Shown: positions 88 through 40,955 of the stretch, piece after piece
Position numbering within the stretch: position 1 is the stretch's first letter
Layout of the letters: each line of letters opens with the position of its first letter
Assembly: GCA_045888315.1 (NCBI GenBank)
Contig: JBGCVQ010000001.1
Span: 1 to 56,612 of the forward strand
DNA length: 56,612 nt
Reading direction: 5' to 3'
Source of the DNA: Anaerolineales bacterium
Lineage (GTDB): Bacteria; Chloroflexota; Anaerolineae; Anaerolineales; UBA11858
The notes under the pieces: model-generated
Told to the model about the DNA's origin: nothing
The model's database searches: none
What the model saw: only the letters and a program-made list of their open reading frames with translations
Translations under genes and position numbers: made by a program

Positions 88-108
88 TGCAGGCCCTCCC
101 GGCCTGCA
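88..108 (-). terminator. Candidate stem-loop downstream of hypC; possible end of the hydrogenase operon
   Basis: On the minus strand GCAGGCC-GGGAG-GGCCTGC forms a 7-8 bp stem, followed by ATGACTTGTTTTGG. The T tract is weak. Confidence 0.3.
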
Positions 109-160: not shown

Positions 161-430
161 TTAAATCCCGGCTTCTGGACCCAGGCCGGCATCGATCAGG
201 GATTCCGTATCATACAGTTCCTGGAGCAGTTCTAAGCTCTTTTGAGCTTCTTCTTCATCCAGCACGCTGATCGCAAACCCGACATGGATGATCACATACT
301 GCCCGATCTCGACCTCGGGCACGACTTCCAGGCAGGCCTCCCGGATCACTCCCCCAAAATCCACCTTGGCCATCCTGATGCCCCCCGCATCATAGAGTTC
401 GATCACTTTTCCAGGTACACCTAAGCACAT
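161..430 (-). CDS. hypC: [NiFe] hydrogenase maturation chaperone HypC/HupF family
   Basis: An internal Met gives the N-terminus MCLGVPGKV, the HypC signature with the essential Cys2. GGGAGG lies 5 nt upstream of ATG 430. The track ORF (161..451) carries a 7-aa extension that would bury Cys2. Confidence 0.85.
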   Translation of the reverse strand: MCLGVPGKVIELYDAGGIRMAKVDFGGVIREACLEVVPEVEIGQYVIIHVGFAISVLDEEEAQKSLELLQELYDTESLIDAGLGPEAGI

Positions 431-476
431 ACTACCTCCCAAAAAATTCAACCGCTAATTAGTTTACAAGCGCTCC

Positions 477-1529
477 TTACTCGGCTGGCAAGACCGCCCG
501 GGCGAAATCAAGGGGCTCAATTCCGGGAGATTCGATTCCATGCTGCTGGTAGAATCCCCGGATGGCATTCAGGATGGTCTCCTGGTCCGCCGGCAGGTTC
601 TCCAGGGTATTTTCCAGCCCCACCAGGTCCTTGGCGGGGTAGAAGAAGAAATCTCCTGAGAGATGGACATCTCGCAGGAACCCATCTTCCTGCACGGCGG
701 CAACCTGGATCAATCCTCCTGCTGCCTTATAGGCTTGGTGGATGACATAAACACCTTCCCTGATTTTAACCGACTCTTCAGCCTGGCGGTTATCATTCTC
801 AAACAACCAATCATTGGTGTACATTCGCTCGAAGATCTCGTCCGCTTTGGCCATCAGTTCGCCATCAACCTGATATTTGATAGGATGGCTGCCGAGCAGA
901 GGGACATAACGGCTGATGAGGTCTTCCGCGATCAGGGCCGTGTCGGGCATTTCTCCGGTCACGTCCTTGATCGTGGTCAGATTTTCCCGGAGCGTTTTGA
1001 AGACCTTGTCCCGGAATTTCTCATCCGGGACCCGGAGGCATTTGCTCATGGTCTCATGGTCGAAATCCAGGATGAGATTCCCAACCAGGATGATCATGTC
1101 ATTGATCTCCGCCGCACCGTTCCCGGAGATCTTCTGGTGCTGATAAAGGATATCATTGACGGGTTTATAGACAGCATCCACGCCAAAAGCCCGGTAGGAG
1201 CCCACAACCGGCTCCAGGAATTTGCGGTAGAAATCAGCTTTTTTGGGGGGAACTTGGGGATGATCAGCCCGCAGCACCAGCTGATAGAACAGCTGGTGAC
1301 CGTCCAGGAAGACCGCGCCGCCTCCTACCTCCCGCCGGAAGACCGGGATCCCCTGTCTGGCAGTAAACTCGAGGTCGATGACCTGCCTGGCGTTCTGGTG
1401 ACAGCCGATACACACGTATGGGGTTGCCGGTCTGAGCATGAAGAGCGCTTCCTGCCCTAAATAAGCAGCCGCATGATAGAGAGCCTGGCTGTGTTCCCAG
1501 GAAACCTGGTCTAGAAAATAATACTCCAC
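477..1529 (-). CDS. lplA: Two-domain lipoate-protein ligase (LplA / Lpl(AB)-like)
   Basis: RREVGGGAVFLD matches the LplA RRxSGGGAVFHD motif. HQKISGNGAAE contains the catalytic Lys motif KxSGxA. The C-terminal region (NDWLFEN ... VHLSGDFFFYP) resembles the LplA accessory domain. I place the start at GTG 1529, preceded by AGGAAGG, not at the track start 1928. Confidence 0.75.
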   Translation of the reverse strand: MEYYFLDQVSWEHSQALYHAAAYLGQEALFMLRPATPYVCIGCHQNARQVIDLEFTARQGIPVFRREVGGGAVFLDGHQLFYQLVLRADHPQVPPKKADFYRKFLEPVVGSYRAFGVDAVYKPVNDILYQHQKISGNGAAEINDMIILVGNLILDFDHETMSKCLRVPDEKFRDKVFKTLRENLTTIKDVTGEMPDTALIAEDLISRYVPLLGSHPIKYQVDGELMAKADEIFERMYTNDWLFENDNRQAEESVKIREGVYVIHQAYKAAGGLIQVAAVQEDGFLRDVHLSGDFFFYPAKDLVGLENTLENLPADQETILNAIRGFYQQHGIESPGIEPLDFARAVLPAE

Positions 1530-1567
1530 AATGACCTTCCTGATTTTGATGTTGGACCGAGTGAGGC

Positions 1568-2047
1568 TTATACCCTGTCCCAGTCGGCAATGATCCTTTC
1601 TGCCCTGGCAAGCAGATCGGGGATGACAGCTGAGATCTCCGGACTCAGCTCGGTACCGATTCCCAGATCGAACGGCACAGCGCCCACCAGGTGCAGATGA
1701 CCGGGCAGCTTCTCGCGGAATCTTGCCAACCCCAGCACCTCTTGAAAGGTGATCTGGTGATCGGACATCTTGATCCCGGTGTACATGGGGATCTCGTCCC
1801 CGTCCAGTTCGATCACGGATCCTGGATCCTGGCGGGCATTCACCGCATCCAGGATCAGCAGATGGCTGGCTCCCTCCACCCAGGAGAGCAGGTTCAACCC
1901 CAGCACTCCCCCATCCACGAATTCCCACCCGGGAAGATCTCCCAGACGGGCCTCCAAGGCCTTGAGGGCGTGTACGCCCAACCCTTCATCCTTATTCAAG
2001 GTGTTACCTAAACCAAGAACGATTTTTCTACCTGGTTGATCAGTCAT
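1568..2047 (-). CDS. [NiFe] hydrogenase maturation endopeptidase (HyaD/HybD/HupD family)
   Basis: IVLGLGNTLNKDEGLGVH, LILDAV and MSDHQITFQEVL are typical of HybD-type proteases. It lies directly downstream of the large subunit, which carries a cleavable C-terminal extension. Confidence 0.9.
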   Translation of the reverse strand: MTDQPGRKIVLGLGNTLNKDEGLGVHALKALEARLGDLPGWEFVDGGVLGLNLLSWVEGASHLLILDAVNARQDPGSVIELDGDEIPMYTGIKMSDHQITFQEVLGLARFREKLPGHLHLVGAVPFDLGIGTELSPEISAVIPDLLARAERIIADWDRV

Positions 2048-2073
2048 AATTCCACGATTTCAGAGGGTAAAGG

Positions 2074-2106
2074 ATTCGGTGGCAGCCCGATGGGCTGCCA
2101 CCGAAT
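2074..2106 (-). other. Perfect 15-bp hairpin between hynL and the protease gene
   Basis: ATTCGGTGGCAGCCC-GAT-GGGCTGCCACCGAAT begins 3 nt after the hynL stop codon. No U tract follows. Confidence 0.6.
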
Positions 2107-2108
2107 GA

Positions 2109-3854
2109 TTAGCGGATGATCTGACAAACACTCAGTCCGGTACCGACCTCACCCAGGTCCTGGCCTTCCGCGTCGATCATGTGAATGGCACAGGCCATGC
2201 AAGGATCGAAGGAATGGATGGTCCGCAGGATCTCCAGGGGCCATTCCGGTTTTGCCAGGGGCGTGCCAACCAGGGAAGCCTCATATGCCCCGGGTTTTCC
2301 GTTGTGATCCCGGGGAGAGGCGTTCCAGGTCGTAGGCACGACCATCTGGTAGTTGTCGATCTGGCCGTTCTCGATCACGATCCAATGGCCCAGGGCGCCG
2401 CGGGGGGCTTCCATGTAGCCAAATCCCCTGGCAGATTTCGGCCATGTGTTCGGCTCCCATTTCTGGTCATTGAAGGTCTTGGTATTCCCAGCCGCGATGG
2501 CAGCCACCAGGTCATCATACATACCTGTCATGGCATCGGCAAAGACCTTGGTCTCGATCCCCCGGGCAGCGGTGCGGCCCAGGGTGGAGAAAACTGCCTC
2601 CAGCGGGGCGCCCAGGGTCTTGAGGACGTAATTGGTCAGTTCCTGGGTTTGCTCATGACCCGAAGCGTACATGACCAGCACCCGGGCCAAGGGGCCGACT
2701 TCCATCGGCGTGTCATTCCAGCGGGGCGCTTTCAACCAGGAATATTTCTGATCGACCTCCAGGAAATCATAAGGAGGGTAAGGACCGGTGAACTTGAACT
2801 CGGTCTCCCCTTCCCAGGGATGCAAGCCTTTTCCATCCCCACCCTGATAGTCATACCAGGAATGGGTCACGAATTCCTTCATGAGGTCGAAGTCGCGGGG
2901 ATTGGGCTCGATGATATTGTTGAGGTCGCGGCCCATGATCACGGCCCTGGGAACCAGGAATTGGGATGTGTCGCTGTTATCCGGCCCCGGGAACTCACCC
3001 CAGGTCAGGAAATTCCCCAGGCCCTCTCCCAAGGAAGCGTATTCCAGGTAATAGGGCGCGATGGCCAGCAGGTCGGGGATATAGACCTGGTCCACGAATT
3101 CCTGCATGCGCTGGATGGAATCCTTGATGATCGATAGGCGGCTGATATTCAAAGCGGTATCGCTGTTGACGTCGATCGGCATGGGGACACCACCGACCAC
3201 GAAGTTCGGATGGGGGTTCTTGCCGCCAAAGATGGTGTGGATCTGAGTGACATGGGACTGCCAGTCCAGAGCTTCCAGATAATGGGCAACAGCCAGCAAG
3301 TTCACTTCCGGGGGCAGCTTATAAGCTGGATGCCCCCAGTAAGCATTGGCGAACAGGGAAAGCTGCCCACTGTCAACAATGCGCTGGACTTTGGCCTGCA
3401 CATCCGCAAAATAACCCGGCGAAGAATTCTTCCAGGCTGAAATGCTCTGCTGGATCTGACTGGTCACAGCGGGATCAGCCTTGAGGGCAGAAACCACATC
3501 CACCCAGTCCAGGGCGTGCAGATGGTAGAAATGCATGACATGGTCATGGACATACTGCTGGGCGATCATCAAATTGCGGATCAGGTTGGCCGCTTCCGGG
3601 ATCTGGATGCCCAGGGCATCCTCCACCGAGCGGATCGAGGCAAAGGAATGCACCGTGGTGCAAACCCCGCAAGCCCGCTGGGTGAATGCCCAGGCTTCCC
3701 GTGGATCACGGCCTTTGAGGATCTTCTCGATCCCCCGCACCATGGTGCCGGAGGAGTAGGCGCTAGCGATCTTGTTGTCAGCATCGAGTTCCGCTTCGAT
3801 TCGCAGATGGCCTTCAATACGTGTAATGGGATCAATCACTATTCTCTCAGTCAT
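2109..3854 (-). CDS. hynL: [NiFe] hydrogenase large subunit, group 1 membrane-bound uptake type (Isp-type context)
   Basis: It has N-terminal RIEGHLRIE and RACGVCTTVHS (RxCGxCxxxH). The C-terminal DPCMACAIH is followed by a 23-aa extension for proteolytic maturation. Confidence 0.95.
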   Translation of the reverse strand: MTERIVIDPITRIEGHLRIEAELDADNKIASAYSSGTMVRGIEKILKGRDPREAWAFTQRACGVCTTVHSFASIRSVEDALGIQIPEAANLIRNLMIAQQYVHDHVMHFYHLHALDWVDVVSALKADPAVTSQIQQSISAWKNSSPGYFADVQAKVQRIVDSGQLSLFANAYWGHPAYKLPPEVNLLAVAHYLEALDWQSHVTQIHTIFGGKNPHPNFVVGGVPMPIDVNSDTALNISRLSIIKDSIQRMQEFVDQVYIPDLLAIAPYYLEYASLGEGLGNFLTWGEFPGPDNSDTSQFLVPRAVIMGRDLNNIIEPNPRDFDLMKEFVTHSWYDYQGGDGKGLHPWEGETEFKFTGPYPPYDFLEVDQKYSWLKAPRWNDTPMEVGPLARVLVMYASGHEQTQELTNYVLKTLGAPLEAVFSTLGRTAARGIETKVFADAMTGMYDDLVAAIAAGNTKTFNDQKWEPNTWPKSARGFGYMEAPRGALGHWIVIENGQIDNYQMVVPTTWNASPRDHNGKPGAYEASLVGTPLAKPEWPLEILRTIHSFDPCMACAIHMIDAEGQDLGEVGTGLSVCQIIR

Positions 3855-3865
3855 AATATCTGCTC

Positions 3866-4189
3866 CTACTGCTCGCGCAACCAGGCCAGCGCTTGTTCCT
3901 CGGACTGGAAGTGACGAACCTCGTGTACATAGTAGCTGTCAGGGATCTCAAGTGTTACCGGGTCGAGATCAGCGCCGATGATGGCTGAAATCGGCATCAT
4001 AGGGCGAAACTGTTTCAGCTGCGCAGCGCATTCCTCCCCGGTCGTACCGCTCAGGTCGATCAGCAATTTCCCGTGGTAGTCCGCCAGGAAATTGGCCAGC
4101 GACCGCACATCTTCATGGGAGAACTTGCTGGTATGAACACAGCGCAAGATCCCTTTTTCCACAGGTGTAAGTGTAAAGGATGCCGTCAT
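3866..4189 (-). CDS. Hypothetical 107-aa protein inserted between isp2 and hynL, possibly SpoIIAA/STAS-like
   Basis: The ORF fills the gap exactly, with 10-11 nt spacers on each side. KLLIDLSG and the C-terminal VRHFQSEEQALAWLRE resemble STAS/SEC14-like (DUF3478-type) proteins. The fold call is weak. Confidence 0.55.
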   Translation of the reverse strand: MTASFTLTPVEKGILRCVHTSKFSHEDVRSLANFLADYHGKLLIDLSGTTGEECAAQLKQFRPMMPISAIIGADLDPVTLEIPDSYYVHEVRHFQSEEQALAWLREQ

Positions 4190-4199
4190 CTGATACCTC

Positions 4200-5459
4200 C
4201 TAGGTTTCTAAGGCGTCGGCTACCATTTGAGCGAAGCCAGCCACTTTGACATCCAGATTGAAATGACCCACGCAGTCCGTGAACTGCAGGCGGCAGTTGG
4301 AGCAGGCCATCACCACCGTATCTGCACCGATTTTCTCGAGCTGGTCCATCTTCAATTCGAAGACAGCATAGCGTAGAGGGTCGGCGTCCTTGATGGCGAT
4401 CACGCCTCCACCGCCGCCGCAGCAGATCGCCTGCTCTTTATTGGGACTCATCTCCTTGAAGGAATCCGGAGCCAGGATGTTCATGACCAGGCGGGGTTCC
4501 TTGATATGGCCGCCATTGCGCTGGATCTTGCAGGCGTCATGAAAGGTGATGGTGCCGTTGTTGTAGGCGTTTGCCTTGAGCTTGATGCGCCCGGATTCGA
4601 CATATTCGCCGATCAGCCCCACGATGTGGGTGATCTCCAGGTCCGGGGGAACGTCGACCAGGTTGTAGGCTGTCCAGCGCAGCGCGTCATAAGCGTGACC
4701 GCATTCAGTGACCACGATCTTCTTGACACCCATCTCTTGCGCGCCATCCAGCACCCGCTTGAGGATCACTTTGGTATGCGCCTTACTCCCCTCATAAAAA
4801 CCGAAGTTCACGACCTCCCGGGCTTTAGAGCTCAGGGTCCAGTTCTCTCCAGCCGCATTAAGGATCTCGGCAATGGCAGCCAGGTTCTGGGGAAATTTCA
4901 TGATCTCGATCGAGGAGAATACCACCAGGGTCTCGGCGTCTTTCTTGTCGAGGGGGATATCGACCTCCCACTCATCCTGTACGAAATCTATCCTCTCCGA
5001 GAAGACATCGTCAGTGACGCCTAGCGGGCTGCCCTCATCGAGCTGCTTCTGGACCGCGTCCTCCAAATCTGTGGGAACAACTCCCGCGGCCACCAAGCCG
5101 GTGCGCACATCCGCGATCAAGTGGCCGATATCGATGCCCATCGGGCACACCAGGGCGCATTTGTTGCAGACCGTACAAGCGTGGTAGACATACGAGCTCC
5201 AGTTCTGGAGGTCCTCTTCTGTGACCCGCTTATCAACCCCAAGAGCCAGTTTGATCTTACCGCCCAGGGTGAAGCGCTGCTCGTAAGCTTTGCGGAGCAG
5301 CTCGAACTTCCAGACCGGGGCATATTCGGGAACGCCGGTTGCCTGGTAGAAGTGGCAGGCCTCTGCGCACATACCGCAGCGGGTGCAAGCTTCCAGCTGC
5401 GATGCAACTCGGGAACCAGTTTCCCTGATAAATGTATCAATTGCGTTTTGAGTGTCCAT
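4200..5459 (-). CDS. isp2: Isp2: HdrD/DsrK-like Fe-S protein with two 4Fe-4S ferredoxin motifs and CCG cysteine-rich domains
   Basis: Motifs seen: CTRCGMCAEAC, CTVCNKCALVCP, and CCGGGGG ... CSNC (CCG domain). It has no signal peptide. Its position after isp1 matches hynS-isp1-isp2-hynL operons. Confidence 0.88.
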   Translation of the reverse strand: MDTQNAIDTFIRETGSRVASQLEACTRCGMCAEACHFYQATGVPEYAPVWKFELLRKAYEQRFTLGGKIKLALGVDKRVTEEDLQNWSSYVYHACTVCNKCALVCPMGIDIGHLIADVRTGLVAAGVVPTDLEDAVQKQLDEGSPLGVTDDVFSERIDFVQDEWEVDIPLDKKDAETLVVFSSIEIMKFPQNLAAIAEILNAAGENWTLSSKAREVVNFGFYEGSKAHTKVILKRVLDGAQEMGVKKIVVTECGHAYDALRWTAYNLVDVPPDLEITHIVGLIGEYVESGRIKLKANAYNNGTITFHDACKIQRNGGHIKEPRLVMNILAPDSFKEMSPNKEQAICCGGGGGVIAIKDADPLRYAVFELKMDQLEKIGADTVVMACSNCRLQFTDCVGHFNLDVKVAGFAQMVADALET

Positions 5460-5471
5460 ATCTGACCTCTA

Positions 5472-6149
5472 CTAAGGGTTGACTCCACGTTTTCCGAAAT
5501 AAATCCCCTGCCTGGTGCGGGAGAAGAAATAGAAAATGAAGTGGGAGATGCGGCTGAGGGGAATCCAGATGAGCAGGAAATCCACCGTCAGCATATGCAG
5601 CGCGAAGGCTTTCTCATAGGGATTGATGAGATGGTGCGTCATCAGGTAGCCGCTGACCATGGGCAGGAAGACCAGGGTCCAGTTCAACCATTCTGCCGGT
5701 CCGGTAAGAAGCTTCATGACCGGATTGACCAGGCGGTTGATCAGCAGGGCGATCATGGCCACGATGGATACCGCTGCCAGCCAGTCTGTGATCGGAAGTG
5801 GTAGGGTAGGCCACCCGAAACCAAGCAGGCTCTTCCAGGCCAGCATATGGGGGGTTCCCAAGATGAGGACAACCAGCAGTCCCAGGTGGAACAACCCGCC
5901 AGCCAGGTAGGTGACCATATTCTTTGAGAAAGTCCGCTTTACCCAGGGAATGAAAGGCCAGACGATCCCGCCTTTCAAATAGGACTTGACCACCCCACCC
6001 AGCTTGCTTCCCATGGAGGGTACCTTGTCCTTCTTCCAGGCCAGGAAAATCACCCTGGCAAGGCGGTATGTCATACCGCCTATAAACACCAACCACGCCA
6101 CCTTGAACAAGGGTCCGCGTGCGAATTCAAGAAGTGTATACCAGTTCAT
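5472..6149 (-). CDS. isp1: Isp1: NarI/DsrM/HdrE-like integral membrane b-type cytochrome
   Basis: About five hydrophobic helices carry His residues (FHLG, PHML, THHL, LHML, SHF). It lies between the small subunit and the HdrD-like gene. Confidence 0.8.
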   Translation of the reverse strand: MNWYTLLEFARGPLFKVAWLVFIGGMTYRLARVIFLAWKKDKVPSMGSKLGGVVKSYLKGGIVWPFIPWVKRTFSKNMVTYLAGGLFHLGLLVVLILGTPHMLAWKSLLGFGWPTLPLPITDWLAAVSIVAMIALLINRLVNPVMKLLTGPAEWLNWTLVFLPMVSGYLMTHHLINPYEKAFALHMLTVDFLLIWIPLSRISHFIFYFFSRTRQGIYFGKRGVNP

Positions 6150-6158
6150 GATTATCTC

Positions 6159-7280
6159 CTAGTCTCCATCCTGTGCGGGTTGGGCATCATCCGTGGTCTT
6201 CTTTTTTGCCTTGCCGATGGAAGAGACTGCCGCACCTGCGACAGCTCCTGCCGCAGCGGCAGCACCGACCATGGTGACCTCAGGCCTGGTGAGTGGAGCG
6301 GATTGTCCTTGATAGAATCCGCCGCCATCCCAGAAATTAGGCTCTGAGCAGCCCAGGCAGGGATGTCCGGATTGAACCGGGAATGATAACCCCTGGTCCC
6401 ACTTCATCACCGCGCAGGCGTTGTAGGTGGTGGGTCCCTTGCAGCCCAGCTTATACAGGCACCAGCCCTGCTTGGCACCTTCATCATCGAACGATCCAGC
6501 AAACTTGCCGGCCTCATAGAAGGGGCGCCGCAGGCAGCGATCGTGGATGGTGTGACCATAGAAAGGCATGGGCCGATTGAGGCTGTCCAGTTCTGGCAGC
6601 GCTCCGAAGACCACGAAGTGGGCCACGGAACCAGTGAAGACCTCCGGGATCGCCGGGCAGCCGGGAATGTTCAAGACCGGTTTATCGGTGATGATCTCCC
6701 AGACTCCTTTGGCTCCCGTGGGGTTAGGTTTAGCCTTGGGAAGTCCGCCAAAGGCAGCACAGTTCCCGGTGGCTATGATGGCAGCTGCGCCATCGGCTGC
6801 TTCTTTCAGCAGATCCAAAGCCGAACGGCCGCCTATGGTGCAGTACGCCCCATTCTCACCTGAAGGAATCGAGCCTTCGACCACTAGAACATACTGGCCG
6901 CGATACTGCTCCATGACGCTCTCTTTATTGGCTTCGGTTTGAAAACCAGCGGCTGCGGTCAGGGTCTCATGGTATTCCACTGAAATGACATTCAGGACCA
7001 GGTCGATCAATGTTGGGGACTGGGAGCGGGTCAAGGCTTCACTGCATCCAGCACAATCCTGGAATTCCAGCCAGATGACCGGGACCCGCGGCTTGGATTC
7101 CAAAGCCCGGGCAACCTGCTTAGCGGTCACTGCCCCCAGATCTGTGGGCGTTTTCCCCATCTCGAAGGGAGGAAGCTGACCCAGGCCCATAACCCCTGCC
7201 AGCATCCCACACATCTTGATGAAATCCCGCCGCGAAACGCCTTCCTTCTGTAGATGTTCGTAAATCGTTTCCTCGGGCAT
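6159..7280 (-). CDS. hynS: [NiFe] hydrogenase small subunit with Tat signal and C-terminal membrane anchor
   Basis: SRRDFIKMCGMLAG is a twin-arginine signal. Fe-S cysteine patterns are present (QDCAGCSE, GNCA, PGCP, CxxC... CLGCSEP). The C-terminal Ala/Gly-rich helix is followed by KAKKK. Confidence 0.95.
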   Translation of the reverse strand: MPEETIYEHLQKEGVSRRDFIKMCGMLAGVMGLGQLPPFEMGKTPTDLGAVTAKQVARALESKPRVPVIWLEFQDCAGCSEALTRSQSPTLIDLVLNVISVEYHETLTAAAGFQTEANKESVMEQYRGQYVLVVEGSIPSGENGAYCTIGGRSALDLLKEAADGAAAIIATGNCAAFGGLPKAKPNPTGAKGVWEIITDKPVLNIPGCPAIPEVFTGSVAHFVVFGALPELDSLNRPMPFYGHTIHDRCLRRPFYEAGKFAGSFDDEGAKQGWCLYKLGCKGPTTYNACAVMKWDQGLSFPVQSGHPCLGCSEPNFWDGGGFYQGQSAPLTRPEVTMVGAAAAAGAVAGAAVSSIGKAKKKTTDDAQPAQDGD

Positions 7281-7307
7281 CGTGATTTTCTCCTTTTCCA
7301 GCGCTGG

Positions 7308-7754
7308 TTACTCGCAGGAAACCCCATCTTCCTCTAACTTGGCTTTATAAGCATCTAGCCCTTCCGAGCCAGTAGCCAAGGAACCCTTTTCGCCATCCCA
7401 GTCCTCAGCCTTGATCTCTGCGATCCAGCCCTCCCCATAAGGATCTGAGACCACGATATTGGGATCGCTGGCCAGCTTGTCATTCCCACGGAGCAGCTCA
7501 CCCGTGACGGGAGCGGGAACCGGACCCACGAATTTACTGGATTCGACGGTCGCAGTGCTCTTTCCCTGGGGGACGGTCTTGCCGACCTTCCTGTCGCTGA
7601 CTGTCACTGCCGTAAACGAGCCCCCGGCCAGCTTGGTCGCTACTGCGGTCATACCGATCCGGATCACATTCTCACCCATGGGCTTGGCCCAGACATGTTT
7701 CTCGATCAGGTAATAGAGATCATCGGGTAGATCACATCCATTGATTTTTGCCAT
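7308..7754 (-). CDS. GcvH-family lipoyl carrier; candidate LbpA-type lipoate-binding protein
   Basis: TVESSKFVGPVPAPVTGEL ... SDPYGEGWIAEIK aligns with the GcvH core VESVKA...PVSGE...EPYxxGW. The candidate lipoyl Lys is K74. No gcvT or gcvP is in the window. Confidence 0.8.
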   Translation of the reverse strand: MAKINGCDLPDDLYYLIEKHVWAKPMGENVIRIGMTAVATKLAGGSFTAVTVSDRKVGKTVPQGKSTATVESSKFVGPVPAPVTGELLRGNDKLASDPNIVVSDPYGEGWIAEIKAEDWDGEKGSLATGSEGLDAYKAKLEEDGVSCE

Positions 7755-7766
7755 CTTGCCTCCTCC

Positions 7767-8135
7767 TTAAAATGTCAGGACCGTTTTGCAGTCGTCTGCC
7801 ACAGACCACATATATGCCCCACCAACCATCTTGATCCCATCCAGCATGTCCTCTGCTTTGAGATCGTGCAGTTCCATCGATGCCGTGCAGGCAGTGAATT
7901 CCACTCCTGCTTCCAGAGCGTCATTGAGGAATTTGCTGACGGGCTCCCCCCCTTCCTTGGGGAATACCTTCTCCGCTGCACCTTTCTTGAGCAGCTGGGT
8001 CCCGTCAATGGTGAAGAACATGGTGACTTCATAGTCCATAGCGGCAGCCAGGGTCGCGAAGAAAAAAGGGGTCGCGCAGCGCCGGGGGGTTTCCGGCCCA
8101 CTGGTCATGATGATCAATACCTTATCCTCGTCCAA
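7767..8135 (-). CDS. DsrE/DsrF-family sulfur-relay protein (122 aa)
   Basis: ETPRRCATPFFFA has the DsrE-type active-site Cys context (Cys20). A second Cys lies in FTACTASMELH. The size and alpha/beta pattern fit the DsrE family. Confidence 0.75.
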   Translation of the reverse strand: MDEDKVLIIMTSGPETPRRCATPFFFATLAAAMDYEVTMFFTIDGTQLLKKGAAEKVFPKEGGEPVSKFLNDALEAGVEFTACTASMELHDLKAEDMLDGIKMVGGAYMWSVADDCKTVLTF

Positions 8136-8174
8136 CGTTTCCTCCTCTTGGGTACTTCATTTTCAATTAACTTA

Positions 8175-8651
8175 CTAGAACGAAAGCGCGATGGCGTTGT
8201 CGCTGGCATACTCCAGGAAGGTGGCTGCGCCGCCAATCTCGACCCCATCGATCAGGTCTTCCTTCTTGATACCCATCACGTCCATGCTCATCTGGCAGCC
8301 GATTATCCTCACCCCACCCTCAACAGCTATTTCCAGCAGCTCGCTCAGCTTGGCGACATTGGCTTTTTTCATCCAGGAATTCATCATCATAGTCGCCATG
8401 GGGGTCATCCCAGGCAGCATACCAATGATGTTAGGGATCGGGACAGGCATAGCAGGATTGGCGATCGGGGCCACTTGCAGTTTATCCGCTTTGCCCTTCT
8501 TGATAATCTCCAAGCCGTAGAACGTAAAGAAAATTGCCGCTTCCATACCCAGGCCAAGCGCTCCAGTGGCAATGATCAGCGGTGGGTAGCCCGCGTCCAG
8601 GGTTCCATGAGCAGCAATGATCGCCACCCGATTTGCTTGATTATTTGACAT
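8175..8651 (-). CDS. DsrE/DsrF-like (COG2210-type, DsrE3-like) sulfurtransferase, 158 aa
   Basis: RVAIIAAHGTLD, the Met/Pro-rich insert NPAMPVPIPNIIGMLPGMTPMATMMM, and a conserved Cys in RIIGCQMSMDVMG (Cys119). Confidence 0.7.
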   Translation of the reverse strand: MSNNQANRVAIIAAHGTLDAGYPPLIIATGALGLGMEAAIFFTFYGLEIIKKGKADKLQVAPIANPAMPVPIPNIIGMLPGMTPMATMMMNSWMKKANVAKLSELLEIAVEGGVRIIGCQMSMDVMGIKKEDLIDGVEIGGAATFLEYASDNAIALSF

Positions 8652-8689
8652 TTTTCACCTCATTAACATACATAAATGGAATTTCAAGG

Positions 8690-8923
8690 CTACGCTTTCT
8701 TGATATAGAATGTGTAGGATCCTCCGTCCTCCTCATGACCGAGAAGCTCATGTCCGGTCTTCTTCGAAAAAGCCGTGACATCCGGGACCGAGCCGGGATC
8801 GGTGGAGATCATCTTCAGCACCTGGCCGGATTGCAGCTCGTCCATAGCCTTCTTGGTCTTGATGATTGGCATCGGGCAGGAAAGCCCACTAGCGTCCAGA
8901 ACCTGATCGAATTCGTATGTCAT
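8690..8923 (-). CDS. tusA: TusA/SirA-family sulfur carrier
   Basis: The 77-aa protein has LDASGLSCPMPI (CPxP motif, Cys16). Confidence 0.9.
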   Translation of the reverse strand: MTYEFDQVLDASGLSCPMPIIKTKKAMDELQSGQVLKMISTDPGSVPDVTAFSKKTGHELLGHEEDGGSYTFYIKKA

Positions 8924-8953
8924 GATTGTTCTCCTTTATTCTGTCGATTTCCG

Positions 8954-9703
8954 TTAACTTTTATGGATACTGCTCATCTCTGAGATCACCTTCAGCCGCC
9001 GGAGCATCTCAGCTCTTTCTGTGCTGATATCCCCGAAAGTTTCCGCCACCTCAGCGATCCAGGTGGCAATCTTGGCCTGTTTGCGTTCATCAAGTACCGG
9101 CAGATCGGCTGCGGCTTTCAGCAGTTCAGCGCGGTCAATCCCATATTCCTCAGCCAGGCGGCTAATTTCCCGGTCCCGCTCTTCAGGATCAGGCTGGTTG
9201 AGATAGAACTGGCCGGCAACGATCATCGCGCTGGGCTTGTCTTCCACCATGATAAAACCCCGGGCGTAACGCAGGCCGGCGTGGCAGCTGTGAAAGATGG
9301 GGCGCGTGTCGCGCTCCTGCGCTAATTCCTTCCAGGAATCCAGACAGGCCTGGTGGCCAGCTGGGCTGTCCTGGATCAGTTCGCAGAATCTTGAGCAGTG
9401 GCTCATCTCTGAAAGAGGCTGGCCCTCCATATCCGTGACCACCGCGCCGACTTCCGCAATCTGGGAAAATACATTCTGGATGGATTGGATGCAGTGCAGG
9501 GGAAGGATCTCAGTAGGAGCCGAATCGACCACCTCAGCGTCGTGAGTCAGGGAGAGCAGCTTATCGATCTCTTCCTGCCGGAATCTCCAATGACTGCCAA
9601 CCTTAATGCCTTCTAGCCTGCCGTCTTTAAGCATGCGGTAGATAGTGGTCCTATCCACATTGAGCAGTTTTTGCACTTGTTTGGCGGTGAGTAGCTCTGT
9701 CAT
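8954..9703 (-). CDS. Transcriptional regulator: excisionase/MerR-type HTH plus PocR sensory domain
   Basis: The N-terminus TAKQVQKLLNVDRTTIYRMLKDGRLEGIKVGSHWRF is an HTH. The Cys/His-rich PocR-like core reads HCSRFCELIQ...GHQACLDSW...FHSCHAGL. Confidence 0.75.
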   Translation of the reverse strand: MTELLTAKQVQKLLNVDRTTIYRMLKDGRLEGIKVGSHWRFRQEEIDKLLSLTHDAEVVDSAPTEILPLHCIQSIQNVFSQIAEVGAVVTDMEGQPLSEMSHCSRFCELIQDSPAGHQACLDSWKELAQERDTRPIFHSCHAGLRYARGFIMVEDKPSAMIVAGQFYLNQPDPEERDREISRLAEEYGIDRAELLKAAADLPVLDERKQAKIATWIAEVAETFGDISTERAEMLRRLKVISEMSSIHKS

Positions 9704-9964: not shown

Positions 9965-11455
9965 ATGAAAACCCAGCGTTTTGAGGTCCTGAGCCAGTCA
10001 GAACTGGACCAGATCCATGCCGCCTCGATGGAGATTCTAGAGGAAGTAGGCATCAAGGTACCCTGGAAGCCAGCCCGAGATTATTACCGCGAGAAAGGCG
10101 CCAGAGTCGATGACGATGCCCAAGCCGTAAAAATACCCGAATCACTTGTCATGTGGGCCCTGGACCAAGCGCCGTCTGAATTCAAGCTATATGGAAACGA
10201 CCCAGAATTCCAGCTCCAGATCGGTGGTGAACAGTTAAATCCAGTCTTTGCCGGGTTGGGCACTCCGCTCAGTGTGGTCGACCTAGACAGCGGTGAGACC
10301 CGGAAAGCGAGTTTTCAGGATACCCTAGAGCATATCATCCTGGTCAATGCCTGCCAGAACATCCACAACACTCAGATGGATGTCTGGCCAGATGATATTC
10401 CCATGACCACCATCCACACCGAAGCCATTTGGGCCTGGGCCCATAACAGTCGCAAAGCCTATGGGATGGGCTGCTACGGCTACCTTCCTACCTGGGACAT
10501 GATGCGCATGATGGCCTTGGCGGTGGGGGGTAAAAAAGAACTCCGGGAACATCCCCGCTTTTTAGCCATTTGCTCCGTGGTCAGTCCCCTCCAGATGGAC
10601 CAGGCCCAGGCGGAGGGCATGTTCATCTGCGCAGATTACGGCCAACCGCTGGCTATATCCCCGGAAGGCATCGCCGGGGCAACCGCGCCGGTCACCCTGG
10701 CGGGACTGCTAGCCCAGGAGAATGCCAACATCCTGGCGCATATCACCCTGTCCCAGATCTACAAGCCTGGGGCACCGGTGCTCTATGGGACAGTCTCCAC
10801 GGTCGCCAATATGCGGGACGGCTCAGTGGCGCTGGGTGCCCCGGAAACCGGCTTGATCACCGCCGGTTCCGCCCAGCTAGCCCGCCGCTACGGGCTCCCC
10901 ATCCGCAGCGTGGGAGGCACCACGGAATCGAAACGAGCAGATGTCCAGGCTGGTTTTGAGCGCCTGGGCAGTCTGCTCCCAGCAGTCTTGGCGGGGGTCA
11001 ACCTGATCACCTGTGCTGGTACGCTGAGCGGCACCATGTTGGAAGATCATGCCCTGCTCATGCTGGACGATGAGTTTTGCGGTGCTGCACTGCGGATCGC
11101 CCGCGGGATCGAGGTCACTCCAGAGACACTCGCCCTGGACCTGATCAAGCAAACCGGCTATGAAGGGAATTATCTGGCAGCTGATCACACAGTGGAAAAC
11201 TTCAGAGAAGAGCTGTTCATTCCCTCGCTGTTCTCTCGGCAGACCGATGTCGATTGGGAAGAGAGCGGCCGCAAACAAGCCCTTGATCTTGCCAGGGAGA
11301 AGGTCAGGCAGGTGCTGGCAGATCACCAGCCTCGCCAGCTTGACCCTGCCGTTGAAAAAAGTATGGAAGAATTCCGAGCGATGGTCGCCGAACGTGATTT
11401 GAACGATTTTTATAACTACGAACAGCCCGAATACCAGGACTTTGACAACTTATGA
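9965..11455 (+). CDS. MttB-superfamily (trimethylamine methyltransferase family) protein, non-pyrrolysine type
   Basis: The 496-aa protein has an N-terminus typical of the family (FEVLSQSELDQIHAASMEILEEVGIKV). The frame is uninterrupted, with no internal TAG. Confidence 0.8.
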   Translation: MKTQRFEVLSQSELDQIHAASMEILEEVGIKVPWKPARDYYREKGARVDDDAQAVKIPESLVMWALDQAPSEFKLYGNDPEFQLQIGGEQLNPVFAGLGTPLSVVDLDSGETRKASFQDTLEHIILVNACQNIHNTQMDVWPDDIPMTTIHTEAIWAWAHNSRKAYGMGCYGYLPTWDMMRMMALAVGGKKELREHPRFLAICSVVSPLQMDQAQAEGMFICADYGQPLAISPEGIAGATAPVTLAGLLAQENANILAHITLSQIYKPGAPVLYGTVSTVANMRDGSVALGAPETGLITAGSAQLARRYGLPIRSVGGTTESKRADVQAGFERLGSLLPAVLAGVNLITCAGTLSGTMLEDHALLMLDDEFCGAALRIARGIEVTPETLALDLIKQTGYEGNYLAADHTVENFREELFIPSLFSRQTDVDWEESGRKQALDLAREKVRQVLADHQPRQLDPAVEKSMEEFRAMVAERDLNDFYNYEQPEYQDFDNL

Positions 11456-12807
11456 ACAACGACCAGAAACTCTCTCTCCGTACCAAGCTGCTATTCAGCA
11501 CAGGGGACCTGAGCACCAGCATTCCCCTGGCGATCCTGATGTTCTTCCAGCTGTATTTCTTAACCGATATTGCCGGTTTGCGTCCAGACCTGGCCGGGTA
11601 CGCAGTAGGACTGCCCCGCATCTGGGACGCCATTAATGATCCCCTCTTCGGTTTGATCTCCGACCGCATCCGCACCCGCTGGGGCAGGCGTCGGGTCCTG
11701 CTGCTGTTTGGCTCTGTACCCCTGGGATTGAGCTTCATTTTCATGTGGCTGGTCCCAAATCTGGGGCAGATCGGATTGGCTTTCTATTATGCGATCGTTT
11801 TCATTGTCTTCGATACAGCCTTTACTGTGGTCCATGTCGGCTACAACTCCCTGACGCCAGAAATGACCAGCGATTATGACGAGCGCAGTTCCCTGAATGG
11901 TTATCGGATGGTATTCTCGATCAGCGGCACCCTGGGCGCTATTATCTTGGCGACGGTACTGGGCTGGTATATCGCAGACTCCCGGACCTTATTTTCCATC
12001 CTGGGCATCGGATTGGGTCTGATCTCAATCATCCCCCCCCTGATCGTCTTCCGGATCACACATGAAAAACCGGCTGAGGAGCTTCCCGAACCCCTTTCGC
12101 TGGGAACAGCCCTGAAACAAACCCTCACCAATCAACCCTTCCGGATGGTGATGGGACTGTACCTGCTGAGCTGGACCACAGCCAGCATCCTGGCTGCTGT
12201 GCTGGTGTACTATGCAAATTATTATCTAAGGGTGCCAGATCAAGCCAATTATTTCGTGCTGGTGGCGGAAGGAGCTGCCATACTCTTTATCCCGTTCTGG
12301 GTCTGGGTTTCCCGGGTTTTGGATAAACGGAGGGCTTTTATACTTGGTTCACTAAGCTGGATCGTGGTGCTCCTGGGCATTTATCTCCTGCCTGCAAACC
12401 AGGTACTCCTGGCCTATTTACTTGCTGGCCTCTCCGGTTCTGGAATCGCCACCGCCTATGTACTGCCCTGGGCGATGATCCCGGACGTGGTGGAGCACGA
12501 CGAATTACGCTCCGGCCAGCGCCGGGAGGGATCCTATTATGCCTTTGCCTCCTTCTTCCAGAAGTTAGCCACTGGCGCTGCGCTGTGGGGCATGGGGATG
12601 GCCCTATCCCTGACCGGTTACATCACTCCCCCTTCCAGCGGCGCCCTACCCGTGCAGCCAATTCAGGCCGTGGATGCCATTCGCTTCTTTATTGGCCCCG
12701 TGCCCACGGTCCTGCTAATCCTGGCTGTACTGTTCGCCTGGCGGTACCCGATAACTCGCGAGAAACACCAAGAAACACTTCAAGCCCTTGCCGATCGGGA
12801 AATGTAG
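11452..12807 (+). CDS. GPH-family (MelB-like, MFS superfamily) cation symporter
   Basis: About 12 TM segments. WDAINDPLFGLISDRIRTRWGRRR is the GPH signature. The start overlaps the mttB stop (ATGA). Confidence 0.8.
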   Translation: MNNDQKLSLRTKLLFSTGDLSTSIPLAILMFFQLYFLTDIAGLRPDLAGYAVGLPRIWDAINDPLFGLISDRIRTRWGRRRVLLLFGSVPLGLSFIFMWLVPNLGQIGLAFYYAIVFIVFDTAFTVVHVGYNSLTPEMTSDYDERSSLNGYRMVFSISGTLGAIILATVLGWYIADSRTLFSILGIGLGLISIIPPLIVFRITHEKPAEELPEPLSLGTALKQTLTNQPFRMVMGLYLLSWTTASILAAVLVYYANYYLRVPDQANYFVLVAEGAAILFIPFWVWVSRVLDKRRAFILGSLSWIVVLLGIYLLPANQVLLAYLLAGLSGSGIATAYVLPWAMIPDVVEHDELRSGQRREGSYYAFASFFQKLATGAALWGMGMALSLTGYITPPSSGALPVQPIQAVDAIRFFIGPVPTVLLILAVLFAWRYPITREKHQETLQALADREM

Positions 12808-12852
12808 CGATTCAGGATTCAATCTCTCACCCATCAGATAGCAGGAGGGGAT

Positions 12853-14118
12853 ATGGATGATTTCAAAGCCTTTGAGACCCTGGCGATCCATGCCGGCGAA
12901 GCAGCCGATCCAGAAACCGGTGCCTTGAGAACACCGATCCACATGACGACCACTTTTCAGCTGCCAAAATTCGGCACTAAACTCTTCGATGCCCTGTTCA
13001 TGGAGAGGCCGGACAGCCCCTATGTCTACACGCGCTGGAGCAATCCTACCCTGCGCTCTCTTGAAGTACGCCTGGCAGCTTTAGAGGAAGCCGAGGAATG
13101 TGCTGTCTTTGCCAGCGGCGTGGGTGCCATTTCTGCCTTGGTGCTCACCCTGCTGAGCGCGGGTGATCATCTGGTCAGCAGTGATGTCTGCTATGCCGGA
13201 GCCTTGGAATTATTTACCCTTCATCTACCCCGCTTCGGGATAGAGGTCAGTCTGGTTGACAGCAGCGATCCAGAACAGGTCCAGGCTGCCCTGAAAGAAA
13301 ACACAAAATTAATTTACATTGAGACGCCTGCCAATCCTATCTTGAAACTGACCGATATCAAGGCGATCAGCCAGATCGCTCGCGATGCAAATATCCCCCT
13401 GGCAGTTGATTCCACTTTCGCCAGCCCGGTCCTCCAGAAACCCCTTAATCTGGGAGCCGATTACGTGGTCCACAGCCTGACAAAATACATCAACGGCCAC
13501 GGGGATGCGCTGGGCGGAATGATCGCCGGCTCAACCGACAAGATCCACCACATCCGCAAGGAGATGCTAGTGCATCTGGGTAGTGCGATGAGTCCCTTCA
13601 ACGCCTGGCTGATCAACCGGGGGATCAACACCCTGGCTTTACGGGTCAGACAGCAGTCAGCCAGCGCTATGAAGGTCGCCCAATTCCTTGAAAAACATCC
13701 GGCAGTGAAACGCGTAATCTACCCGGGTCTGGAAAGCCACCCCCAACATGAACTTGCCAGAGAGCAGATGGATGGATTCGGGGGGATGCTCAGCTTCCAG
13801 CTGAAAGCCGGACTGGAGGGAGCGATCAACTTGGCAGAGAATGTCAGGCTGTTCCAGTACGCAACATCCCTGGGCCATGCTCACAGCCTACTTTTCTACT
13901 ACCCTAGTGATCTATACGTAGATGCGGTTTCGTATTACAGCGAGAAGCAGAAAACACAGATCCGGGAATGGACTGGGGAGGGAGTTTTTCGCACCAGCAT
14001 CGGGTTAGAGGATCCAGACGACCTGATTAAAGATCTGGACCAAGCGCTGAAAGCAAAATCCATCAAAGGGAAAATTGCTCCCATGGTATATGAGCTTCTC
14101 AAGAAATACACGGGATAA
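12853..14118 (+). CDS. PLP-dependent Cys/Met-metabolism enzyme (methionine gamma-lyase / O-acylhomoserine sulfhydrylase-like)
   Basis: The N-terminus FETLAIHAGE and the PLP lysine motif HSLTKYINGHGD fit the family, as does the length. Confidence 0.8.
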   Translation: MDDFKAFETLAIHAGEAADPETGALRTPIHMTTTFQLPKFGTKLFDALFMERPDSPYVYTRWSNPTLRSLEVRLAALEEAEECAVFASGVGAISALVLTLLSAGDHLVSSDVCYAGALELFTLHLPRFGIEVSLVDSSDPEQVQAALKENTKLIYIETPANPILKLTDIKAISQIARDANIPLAVDSTFASPVLQKPLNLGADYVVHSLTKYINGHGDALGGMIAGSTDKIHHIRKEMLVHLGSAMSPFNAWLINRGINTLALRVRQQSASAMKVAQFLEKHPAVKRVIYPGLESHPQHELAREQMDGFGGMLSFQLKAGLEGAINLAENVRLFQYATSLGHAHSLLFYYPSDLYVDAVSYYSEKQKTQIREWTGEGVFRTSIGLEDPDDLIKDLDQALKAKSIKGKIAPMVYELLKKYTG

Positions 14119-40687: not shown

Positions 40688-40955
40688 CTATCCTGCAAAC
40701 TTGGTCTTTCGGTCTTCCATAATATTATCAGCAACCTGGAAGGATGAGCAATCCTTCTCTGAAGGAATATCCCTGTGGATTAGAAGTAGTGGACTGGGCT
40801 TTCTTTCGCGTGAGTGTTCGGGTAAGCTGCCGCATCCCTCCAATCAACACATGACAAGTTACATGAAAAAAGGTGACGAACAAACAGCTTATCTGGATAT
40901 AATTGAATATGTGCCGTCAGGCACTTTAATTTATGCACGTCTCAGGAGTGAAGAT

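Follow-up and report, generated by a model that had tools for sequence, protein, structure and literature searches.

What is the physiological electron acceptor of Isp2, the heterodisulfide-reductase-like subunit of Isp-type [NiFe] hydrogenases? A gene cluster of an Anaerolineales bacterium (Chloroflexota; assembly GCA_045888315.1, contig JBGCVQ010000001.1) raises this question in a specific form: at positions 161-9703 of the 56,612 nucleotides (nt) that were analyzed, hereafter the window, hydrogenase genes stand among genes for the sulfur carrier TusA, two DsrE-family sulfur transferases, a lipoate-binding protein (LbpA) and a lipoate-protein ligase. We consider it somewhat probable that Isp2 works here on a lipoylated LbpA with two characteristic cysteines, which would be fed by a relay of TusA, DsrE2-like and DsrE3-like proteins, all encoded in one hydrogenase operon. 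The operon also bears on a second question, namely, what LbpA carries to or from a CCG active site: sulfur, electrons, or the two together. With the sHdr complex, which is large and difficult to work with, this question is hard to approach. Having a single H2-driven source of electrons, a single CCG protein, and a single LbpA accompanied by its ligase and relay, the operon represents a minimal system for both questions.

Hydrogenase subunits

A first-pass annotation of this DNA, made from its letters alone, had described thirteen co-directional genes with gaps of mostly 10-60 nt and had taken the hydrogenase for a group 1e (Isp-type) enzyme. All thirteen genes were found in the order given there, all on the minus strand and read from 9703 to 161 (open reading frame [ORF] list and domain searches; Table 1), with intergenic gaps of 9-61 nt (in gene order, 30, 38, 39, 12, 27, 9, 12, 10, 11, 61, 38, and 46 nt). 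The evidence on the class of the hydrogenase points the same way. Among solved structures, the closest to HynL was the membrane-bound enzyme of Allochromatium vinosum (3MYR_B; 827 bits, 6.2e-248), with a group 1d enzyme as runner-up (708 bits), and the order HynS-Isp1-Isp2-(orf107)-HynL in the window is the same in 27 related loci. Because 3MYR is the best solved match and the genes follow the order hynS-isp1-isp2-hynL, we regard the enzyme as a probable member of the Isp-type, group 1e-like hydrogenases. HynS carries a twin-arginine translocation (Tat) signal (SRRDFIK; residues 15-35, NCBIfam TIGR01409) and, as a membrane anchor, a C-terminal hydrophobic segment (residues 335-353), and the C terminus of HynL shows the motif DPCMACAIH followed by a 22-residue extension.

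Isp1 gave no Pfam match, and its NCBIfam matches (TmcC, 126.7 bits; HmcE, 102.7 bits) lie below the cut-offs; it has strongly hydrophobic helices and four histidines (His88, His101, His185, and His203) that are invariant in 26/26 orthologues and spaced as in NarI and DsrM. The top NCBIfam models for Isp2, likewise all below their cut-offs, were DsrK (231.7 bits, cut-off 400), HmcF, and TmcB, and nothing among solved structures was close (top match, 9OJN at 1e-12). Isp2 contains two [4Fe-4S] motifs of the form CxxCxxCxxxC together with C310-x35-CCG-x38-C386xxC389, invariant in 27/27 orthologues; neither a signal peptide nor a transmembrane segment was found in it, indicative of a cytoplasmic protein. 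The CCG motif is the disulfide-reducing site in HdrB, HdrD, and DsrK. The plural "CCG domains" of the earlier annotation has to be amended, in that CCG is present but as one complete motif rather than two. In Thiocapsa, the Hyn enzyme is known to support the reduction of sulfur with H2, and Isp2 resembles heterodisulfide reductase (PMC10892978).

Identity of the GcvH-like carrier

The GcvH-like protein encoded directly upstream of HynS scored under both NCBIfam cut-offs for GcvH (98.4 versus 117, and 75 versus 115.85). In alignments with solved GcvH structures, its Lys74 falls on their lipoyl lysine, and Cys7, Lys74, and Cys147, the last being the penultimate residue, are the same in all 121 homologues. 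A pair of conserved cysteines, one close to each end of the protein and not found in GcvH, is the hallmark of sHdr-associated LbpA (Cao et al. 2018, PMC6067878); E. coli GcvH has an equivalent of neither Cys7 nor Cys147. The AlphaFold2 (AF2) model of the protein is confident (predicted local distance difference test [pLDDT] score of 93). In a neighbor-joining tree of 119 LbpA-like proteins, for which the distance was capped for very divergent pairs and E. coli was the only GcvH outgroup, the hydrogenase-linked LbpAs formed one clade (96.7% bootstrap), and all homologues with at least ~53% identity to the query were hydrogenase-linked. The nearest relatives outside the clade were the LbpAs of type II sHdr systems (49-54% identity, versus 31% for E. 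coli GcvH), the genes of which directly follow that for EMO, the membrane-bound CCG protein of those clusters. The protein was tested for clustering with canonical GcvH and grouped with the LbpAs instead. A canonical glycine-cleavage H protein is excluded by the sub-cut-off scores, the invariant Cys7 and Cys147, and the tree placement, and we identify the protein as an sHdr-type LbpA. The standard annotation "glycine cleavage system H protein" hides the hydrogenase link of this carrier.

Sulfur relay, ligase, and regulator

An sHdr-type accessory set beside a hydrogenase had been proposed in the first-pass annotation as TusA, DsrE3, LbpA, and ligase. The set, as known from sHdr systems, comprises TusA, DsrE2/DsrE3-type proteins, LbpA, and a ligase (PMC6067878, PMC11094781), and all of these are present in the operon; the one correction concerns the 158-amino-acid (aa) DsrE protein, which appears closer to DsrE2 than to DsrE3. 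This protein reached 168.6 bits against the NCBIfam DsrE2 model (cut-off, 210), its closest structure in the PDB is 2QS7, termed DsrE2B in PMC11094781, and its Cys119 is invariant across orthologues. The closest PDB structure to the 122-aa DsrE protein is 3MC3 (2.7e-19), which is DsrE3A of S. solfataricus (PMC11094781), and Cys20 and Cys83 are invariant in 27/27 orthologues. The active-site Cys16 of TusA, in a CPMP motif, is invariant in 26/26 orthologues. No hydrophobic segment was detected in LbpA, TusA, orf107, or the 122-aa DsrE protein, and the 158-aa DsrE protein has one that is barely over the threshold. LbpA, TusA, and both DsrE proteins are predicted to be cytoplasmic, with their active-site lysine or cysteines kept. 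TusA- and DsrE-type domains have also been proposed to function in reductive sulfur metabolism (PMC3543383).

The ligase, encoded in the same operon as lbpA, combines a catalytic domain with a C-terminal LplB-like domain (NCBIfam LplB model, residues 273-354), that is, the LplA plus LplB-like domains found in sLpl(AB). All NCBIfam ligase models scored below their cut-offs (curated LplAB model NF053751, 100.6 bits versus 550), and identity to E. coli LplA is 17%; the nearest relatives beyond this type of cluster are the lbpA-adjacent ligases of type II sHdr loci (36%). No LipS or LipT gene was found in the window. For maturation, the operon supplies the ligase to LbpA and the endopeptidase plus HypC to HynL, so that both partners are served.

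The regulator stands at the head of the cluster in 23/28 related loci. In its PocR sensory domain, His70, Cys71, Cys107, Cys120, Cys140, and His141 are invariant in 13 orthologues, which suggests a site for sensing a metal, an Fe-S cluster, or sulfane sulfur. In two related loci (L001 and L002), the regulator has a divergently oriented tatA gene upstream, which is absent at that place in the window. The small protein orf107 belongs to a family almost confined to such operons, with only 380 homologues in 5.8 billion proteins; its gene lies between isp2 and hynL in 12/28 loci, and Cys17, His19, and Cys54 are invariant. A Foldseek search with its AF2 model (pLDDT, 84.8) returned a weak match to the STAS/anti-sigma-antagonist fold (E, 6e-3; TM score, 0.5-0.58).

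Conservation across genomes

To place the cluster among other genomes, a single scan seeded with the LbpA alignment was run over 185,579 GTDB species representatives, yielding 80 loci that were annotated by similarity to the window proteins. The hydrogenase cluster was found in the same order in 26/80 of these loci, and in two further assemblies. The arrangement PocR-TusA-DsrE2-DsrE3-LbpA-HynS-Isp1-Isp2-(orf107)-HynL-protease-(ligase)-(HypC) recurs in loci L001-L027, L029, and L039. According to the record titles, carriers comprise several orders of Chloroflexota (Anaerolineae, Caldilineaceae, Thermoflexales, Herpetosiphon, and Oscillochloris sp. ZM17-4), Ignavibacteria-like bacteria (Ignavibacteriaceae, Melioribacteraceae, plus a "Bacteroidetes" metagenome-assembled genome [MAG]), Calditrichia, Acidobacteriota, and Actinomycetota (Acidimicrobiia and Actinomycetes). 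A MAG assigned to Brevefilum fermentans also carries the cluster (L010). All carriers are MAGs except Oscillochloris sp. ZM17-4 (L022), and some of the labels may reflect binning errors.

The catalytic residues are all invariant in the 23-28 orthologues compared. The endopeptidase gene is present in 22/28 loci and the HypC gene in 6/28; outside the thirteen gene families, the sole family that recurs across loci is HypB-like, in 5 loci. The pairwise distances of LbpA correlated with those of HynL, Isp1, and Isp2 (r = 0.81-0.83; 21 loci), and because the LbpA distances track those of the three hydrogenase subunits, the data fit a cluster that is inherited and transferred as a whole. Since the gene order recurs in 26 species representatives and two further assemblies, the arrangement is judged to lie far beyond chance. 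The synteny was tested for being unique to this genome and proved to be conserved across phyla. The association of the hydrogenase with the LbpA and sulfur modules is near certain.

No sHdrA, sHdrB, or sHdrC gene was in view in the first-pass annotation. We confirmed this for the whole 56-kb window and also for the 28 hydrogenase-linked loci, the same search having found these genes in at least 20 comparison loci. An sHdr system hidden elsewhere in the window was considered and excluded, the rest of the window encoding housekeeping or unrelated functions.

Individual loci differ in detail. The hynL frame is apparently broken in L015. In L005 (10107-12000) and L021 (16207-19000), the maturation genes are followed by genes for a second, more distant LbpA (32-33% identity), for radical-SAM LipS-like proteins, and for another ligase; this extra set resembles the sHdr-type lipoate assembly set, and among the hydrogenase-linked loci LipS-like genes occur in these two only.

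Isp1/Isp2-like pairs without a hydrogenase

In some loci, relatives of Isp1 and Isp2 accompany a carrier and no hydrogenase is encoded. Three such clusters (L052:6600-10441, L054:4800-8794, and L088:3771-8756) carry genes for thioredoxin, TusA, a DsrE2-like and a DsrE protein, a NarI/DsrM-like cytochrome b, a DsrK-like CCG protein, and LbpA, with an ArsR-type regulator in L052 and L088. Their CCG protein shares 36% identity with Isp2, and CCG proteins of this type make up ~33 protein clusters at 72-84% identity. These clusters look like an undescribed, quinone-linked LbpA system. In a Hyphomicrobiaceae MAG (L053:2605-10429), Isp1-like (32%) and Isp2-like (39%) genes, again with no hydrogenase, are followed by genes for a radical-SAM protein, a LipT-like flavoprotein, a second radical-SAM protein, a ligase, a DsrE protein, and LbpA. 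No sHdr gene was found in the 20 kb covered for this locus; in H. denitrificans, the shdr genes are located between dsrE3C and lbpA. A deltaproteobacterial MAG (L089:201-11044) holds a type II sHdr set (CCG protein, EtfBA, EMO, and LbpA) in one cluster with a second LbpA, a DsrM-like/DsrK-like pair, TusA, and two DsrE proteins.

Likewise, dsrC-dsrM-dsrK-like triplets were observed in L090 (6024-8353; Aminicenantes MAG) and L091 (5027-7341), with no dsrAB within 6-7 kb, and their CCG proteins are 43-47% identical to LbpA-linked CCG proteins. Other homologues of the same CCG protein occur in dsrN-like contexts (L092 and L093). DsrC of L090 and L091 ends in ...GCV and the LbpA of the operon in ...SCE, the penultimate residue being cysteine in both, as is typical of DsrC proteins. 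Within one protein family, then, the predicted carrier beside a "cytochrome b + CCG" pair is DsrC in some loci and LbpA in others. Because the hydrogenase-free relatives of Isp1 and Isp2 adjoin LbpA or DsrC, these loci support the view that LbpA may be a DsrC-like substrate of Isp2. Gaiellales-type loci (L062 and L064-L066) carry the carrier cassette without an adjacent redox module and are uninformative in this respect.

Proposed mechanism and alternatives

In the scheme that we favor, HynSL, exported by the Tat pathway and anchored outside the membrane, would oxidize H2 there, and the electrons would traverse the membrane via the two haems of Isp1 to reach Isp2. The CCG cluster of Isp2 would then reduce an oxidized sulfur species on LbpA, the candidates being the disulfide of its lipoamide and, at Cys7 and Cys147, a disulfide, a persulfide, or a trisulfide. 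TusA and the DsrE proteins would supply the sulfane sulfur, H2S would leave, and LbpA would take the role that DsrC has for DsrMK. Proton release outside and uptake inside would generate a proton-motive force, the net activity being that of an H2:sulfane-sulfur oxidoreductase. Both the direction and the exact substrate of the Isp2 reaction are moderately likely as drawn here. By analogy, the scheme mirrors DsrMK-DsrC and VhoGAC-HdrDE and would match the role of Hyn in Thiocapsa (PMC10892978).

Several points weigh against this scheme. In the sHdr systems, LbpA works oxidatively (PMC6067878). The sister link between the hydrogenase-linked LbpAs and those of type II sHdr systems has a bootstrap value of 25%, so that these are nearest by identity only. 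The gene for TusA and that for the DsrE2-like protein are not recognizable in three loci (L017, L022, and L039), in which one DsrE, LbpA, and the hydrogenase are kept. The ligase is present in 19/28 loci, and the ligases are not orthologous throughout, one set showing 57-63% identity and the other 34-38%. That 161-9703 forms a single operon, with its genes co-transcribed, is a prediction drawn from gene spacing alone. From textbook potentials (H2, -414 mV; lipoamide, ~-290 mV), ~120 mV would be available for an electrogenic two-electron transfer, and at environmental H2 levels the transfer from H2 to lipoamide is near equilibrium. Because this driving force is small, the true acceptor may need a higher potential than lipoamide.

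Three other explanations were weighed against the sulfur-carrying role of LbpA. It appears unlikely that LbpA is a pure electron carrier, the lipoamide of which is reduced by Isp2 with electrons from H2 and re-oxidized by a dihydrolipoamide dehydrogenase (E3), encoded elsewhere, that passes them to NAD+. The operon would then be an H2:NAD+ route, with the sulfur transferases serving regulation, cofactor supply, or a side reaction. An action of a shared E3 on LbpA was discussed by Cao et al. 2018 (PMC6067878), and a membrane complex of Pelobacter has been proposed to reduce a lipoyl carrier that E3 re-oxidizes (PMC3543383); moreover, L001 has a Pyr_redox_2/Pyr_redox_dim gene immediately behind the cluster, and the presence of a ligase within the operon implies that the lipoyl group matters. 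However, no E3-like family is conserved in the 28 loci and no dihydrolipoamide dehydrogenase is encoded in the window, both LbpA-specific cysteines are invariant, and the presence in nearly all loci of TusA and two DsrE proteins with invariant cysteines is hard to explain without sulfur transfer. Quite unlikely, in our estimate, is an oxidative direction, in which the operon would be a minimal replacement for sHdr: sulfane sulfur that TusA and the DsrE proteins bring to LbpA would be oxidized and the electrons would pass from Isp2 via Isp1 to menaquinone, or on to the hydrogenase and H2, an outward transfer that would be aided by the membrane potential. A single CCG protein without flavin is set here against the multiple sHdr catalytic subunits thought necessary for a four-electron oxidation yielding sulfite, genes for the handling of sulfite are not conserved near the loci, and proton reduction by sulfane-sulfur oxidation is strongly uphill according to textbook potentials. 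The hosts, too, are mostly Anaerolineae, the known cultured members of which are anaerobic fermenters. What speaks for oxidation is that the accessory proteins are those of the sulfur-oxidizing sHdr system, that the closest LbpA relatives come from sHdr clusters, that NarI-type cytochromes normally have a quinone site, and that the cluster is carried by Oscillochloris (L022), a phototroph genus using sulfide and H2. In addition, Hyn-type enzymes are reported to be reversible (PMC10892978).

A direct coupling could also be lacking altogether, such that the sulfur-relay and LbpA genes and the hydrogenase genes share a regulon only and the substrate of Isp2 is unlinked to them; the relay might then serve to sense sulfane sulfur or render it harmless, or it might be a source of sulfur for Fe-S maturation of the hydrogenase. 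We regard this as very unlikely. Gene neighborhood is, it is true, never proof of physical interaction, a Cys/His-rich PocR regulator stands at the cluster head, and, to our knowledge, the Isp-type enzymes of purple sulfur bacteria function with no lbpA next to their genes. Yet the fixed order and tight gaps are kept in at least five phyla, the linked LbpAs form a monophyletic clade and their distances follow those of the hydrogenase genes, LbpA again accompanies Isp1/Isp2-like pairs where no hydrogenase needs maturing, and related pairs carry DsrC, a known substrate of DsrK, in a matching neighborhood.

A broader proposal extends the action of Isp2 on LbpA. We tentatively suggest, with rather less than even confidence, that LbpA may be a DsrC-like carrier of sulfur and redox equivalents, bearing lipoate, that is in general use among membrane modules of the "cytochrome b + CCG protein" kind. 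The cassette TusA-DsrE2-DsrE3-LbpA, with or without the ligase, would then serve no fewer than three modules, namely, the hydrogenase described here, the quinone-linked DsrMK-like pair (L052, L054, L088, and L053), and the EMO of type II sHdr systems. If this is true, the hydrogenase version would be an unrecognized H2-dependent sulfur respiration with redox-loop energy conservation, widespread in Anaerolineae and other anaerobes, and the class of acceptor used by Isp2 in group 1e hydrogenases would be identified.

Operon layout and remainder of the window

The coordinates of all features are collected in Table 1. HypC starts at the ATG at 430 (N terminus, MCLGVPG), and the ligase most likely starts at the GTG at 1529, preceded by an AGGAAGG ribosome-binding site, and not at the far-upstream GTG of the raw ORF. 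No terminator-like site was found in any of the intergenic gaps of the cluster. The scan for promoters and terminators gave, overall, no more hits than expected from shuffled sequence, and the sole item used from it is the hairpin after hypC.

Table 1. Features of the predicted operon at positions 161-9703 of the window, in the order of transcription
Feature	Position	Strand	Supporting evidence
HTH_17 + PocR regulator, 249 aa	8954..9703	-	Pfam PF12728, 1.7e-14; PF10114, 6.8e-36
TusA sulfur carrier, 77 aa	8690..8923	-	Pfam PF01206, 7.5e-28
DsrE2-like sulfur transferase, 158 aa	8175..8651	-	Pfam DrsE_2, 8.8e-48 (DrsE_2/DsrE)
DsrE3-like sulfur transferase, 122 aa	7767..8135	-	Pfam DsrE, 4.8e-17
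LbpA-type lipoate-binding protein, GcvH fold, 148 aa	7308..7754	-	Pfam GCV_H PF01597, 4.7e-27
HynS, [NiFe] small subunit, 373 aa	6159..7280	-	PF01058, PF14720; NCBIfam TIGR00391, 439 bits (above cut-off)
Isp1, di-haem b-type cytochrome (NarI/DsrM/TmcC type), 225 aa	5472..6149	-	NCBIfam TmcC/HmcE, below cut-off
Isp2, DsrK/HdrD-like Fe-S protein, 419 aa	4200..5459	-	Pfam Fer4_8 + CCG
orf107, STAS-like small protein	3866..4189	-	Weak Pfam SpoIIAA-like match
HynL, [NiFe] large subunit, 581 aa	2109..3854	-	Pfam PF00374 (NiFeSe_Hases), 2.1e-229
HycI/HynD-type maturation endopeptidase, 159 aa	1568..2047	-	Pfam PF01750, 1.4e-24
Lipoate-protein ligase, 350 aa	477..1529	-	Pfam PF21948 (LplA-B_cat), 2e-35; PF10437 (Lip_prot_lig_C)
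HypC [NiFe] maturation chaperone, 89 aa	161..430	-	Pfam PF01455, 5.3e-28
Terminator-like hairpin + T-run, operon end	88..108	-	8 pairs, 6 G-C; tail TGACTTGTTT

The remaining 47 kb of the window hold housekeeping or unrelated genes, e.g., those for SecA, MurJ, GyrA, FtsH, Prs, Fpg, MeaB, and adenosine deaminase. LipS1 and LipS2 were not found in the window, and scans of the window returned neither a tRNA nor an Rfam match. Next to the operon, on the plus strand (9965-14118), lie genes for an MttB-family methyltransferase, an MFS_2 transporter, and a Cys/Met-metabolism pyridoxal phosphate (PLP) enzyme, which are not conserved beside the cluster in other loci; the MttB-family protein is not pyrrolysine-dependent, because it is full-length and no in-frame stop interrupts it. 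At 40701-43228 (plus strand), an NfnAB/sulfide dehydrogenase-like pair is encoded, made up of an FAD/[2Fe-2S] DHODB-type subunit and a Fer4_20/Pyr_redox_2 subunit. The only other member of the ligase superfamily in the window, a BPL_LplA_LipB + BPL_C protein at 46213-47007 (minus strand), is most likely a BirA-like biotin protein ligase.

Relation to described systems

That the first-pass annotation knew of no described hydrogenase coupled to a lipoate-binding protein agrees with our literature search, in which neither the full-text-searched literature nor the main sHdr/LbpA papers (subscription-only papers outside scope) contained a description of the linkage. The closest published idea is a hypothetical lipoyl carrier as electron acceptor for the membrane complex of Pelobacter (PMC3543383). 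All parts of the operon belong to known families; what appears to be undescribed is their combination, the separate clade of LbpAs, and the clusters that pair DsrMK-like proteins with LbpA in parallel. The operon suggests an undescribed coupling of H2 to sulfur chemistry in several bacterial phyla, and a candidate route by which Anaerolineae, Ignavibacteria-like bacteria, and others may cycle sulfur with the help of H2. These groups are common in anoxic sediments and digesters.

With the group 1e HynSL-Isp1-Isp2 of Thiocapsa and Allochromatium, the enzyme shares its gene order, a Tat-exported small subunit, cytochrome b and HdrD-like partners, and, presumably, the physiological tie to sulfur reduction known from the former (PMC10892978). 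Unlike the classical group 1e operons, this one adds TusA, the DsrE2-like and DsrE3-like proteins, LbpA, the ligase, the PocR regulator, and often orf107, and whereas the hosts of group 1e enzymes are classically purple sulfur bacteria, here they are Chloroflexota, Ignavibacteria-like bacteria, and others. The sHdr-LbpA systems of types I and II (Cao et al. 2018, PMC6067878; Tanabe et al. 2023, 2024) have in common with the operon an LbpA with a lipoyl lysine and two extra cysteines, TusA, DsrE2/DsrE3-type transferases, an lbpA-adjacent ligase, and a CCG-domain partner enzyme. In contrast to those systems, no sHdrA, B1, B2, C1, or C2 and no EtfAB or EMO is encoded here, a subunit of the hydrogenase is the sole CCG protein, the LbpAs linked to it stand in a clade of their own, and the direction is likely reductive rather than oxidative.

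The parallel with DsrMK(JOP)-DsrC, known from dissimilatory sulfate reducers and sulfur oxidizers (PMC10861901), lies in the NarI-type di-haem cytochrome b paired with a cytoplasmic CCG protein. In DsrMK, that protein reduces a sulfur-bridged thiol pair on the small carrier DsrC, an analogous role being proposed here for Isp2, and DsrC and LbpA have a penultimate cysteine in common. The two systems differ in the donor, which would be H2 via HynSL instead of menaquinol, and in the carrier, which has a GcvH fold and lipoate and is not DsrC; in addition, Isp2 scores below the DsrK cut-off (232 versus 400), and neither dsrC nor dsrAB is present in the cluster. Finally, VhoGAC-HdrDE of Methanosarcina resembles the proposed scheme in that H2 is oxidized outside, b-type cytochromes take part, a cytoplasmic CCG subunit reduces a disulfide, and the whole forms a redox loop. 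VhoGAC and HdrDE are, however, two complexes linked by methanophenazine, with CoM-S-S-CoB as the substrate, whereas here one complex would act on a protein-bound substrate.

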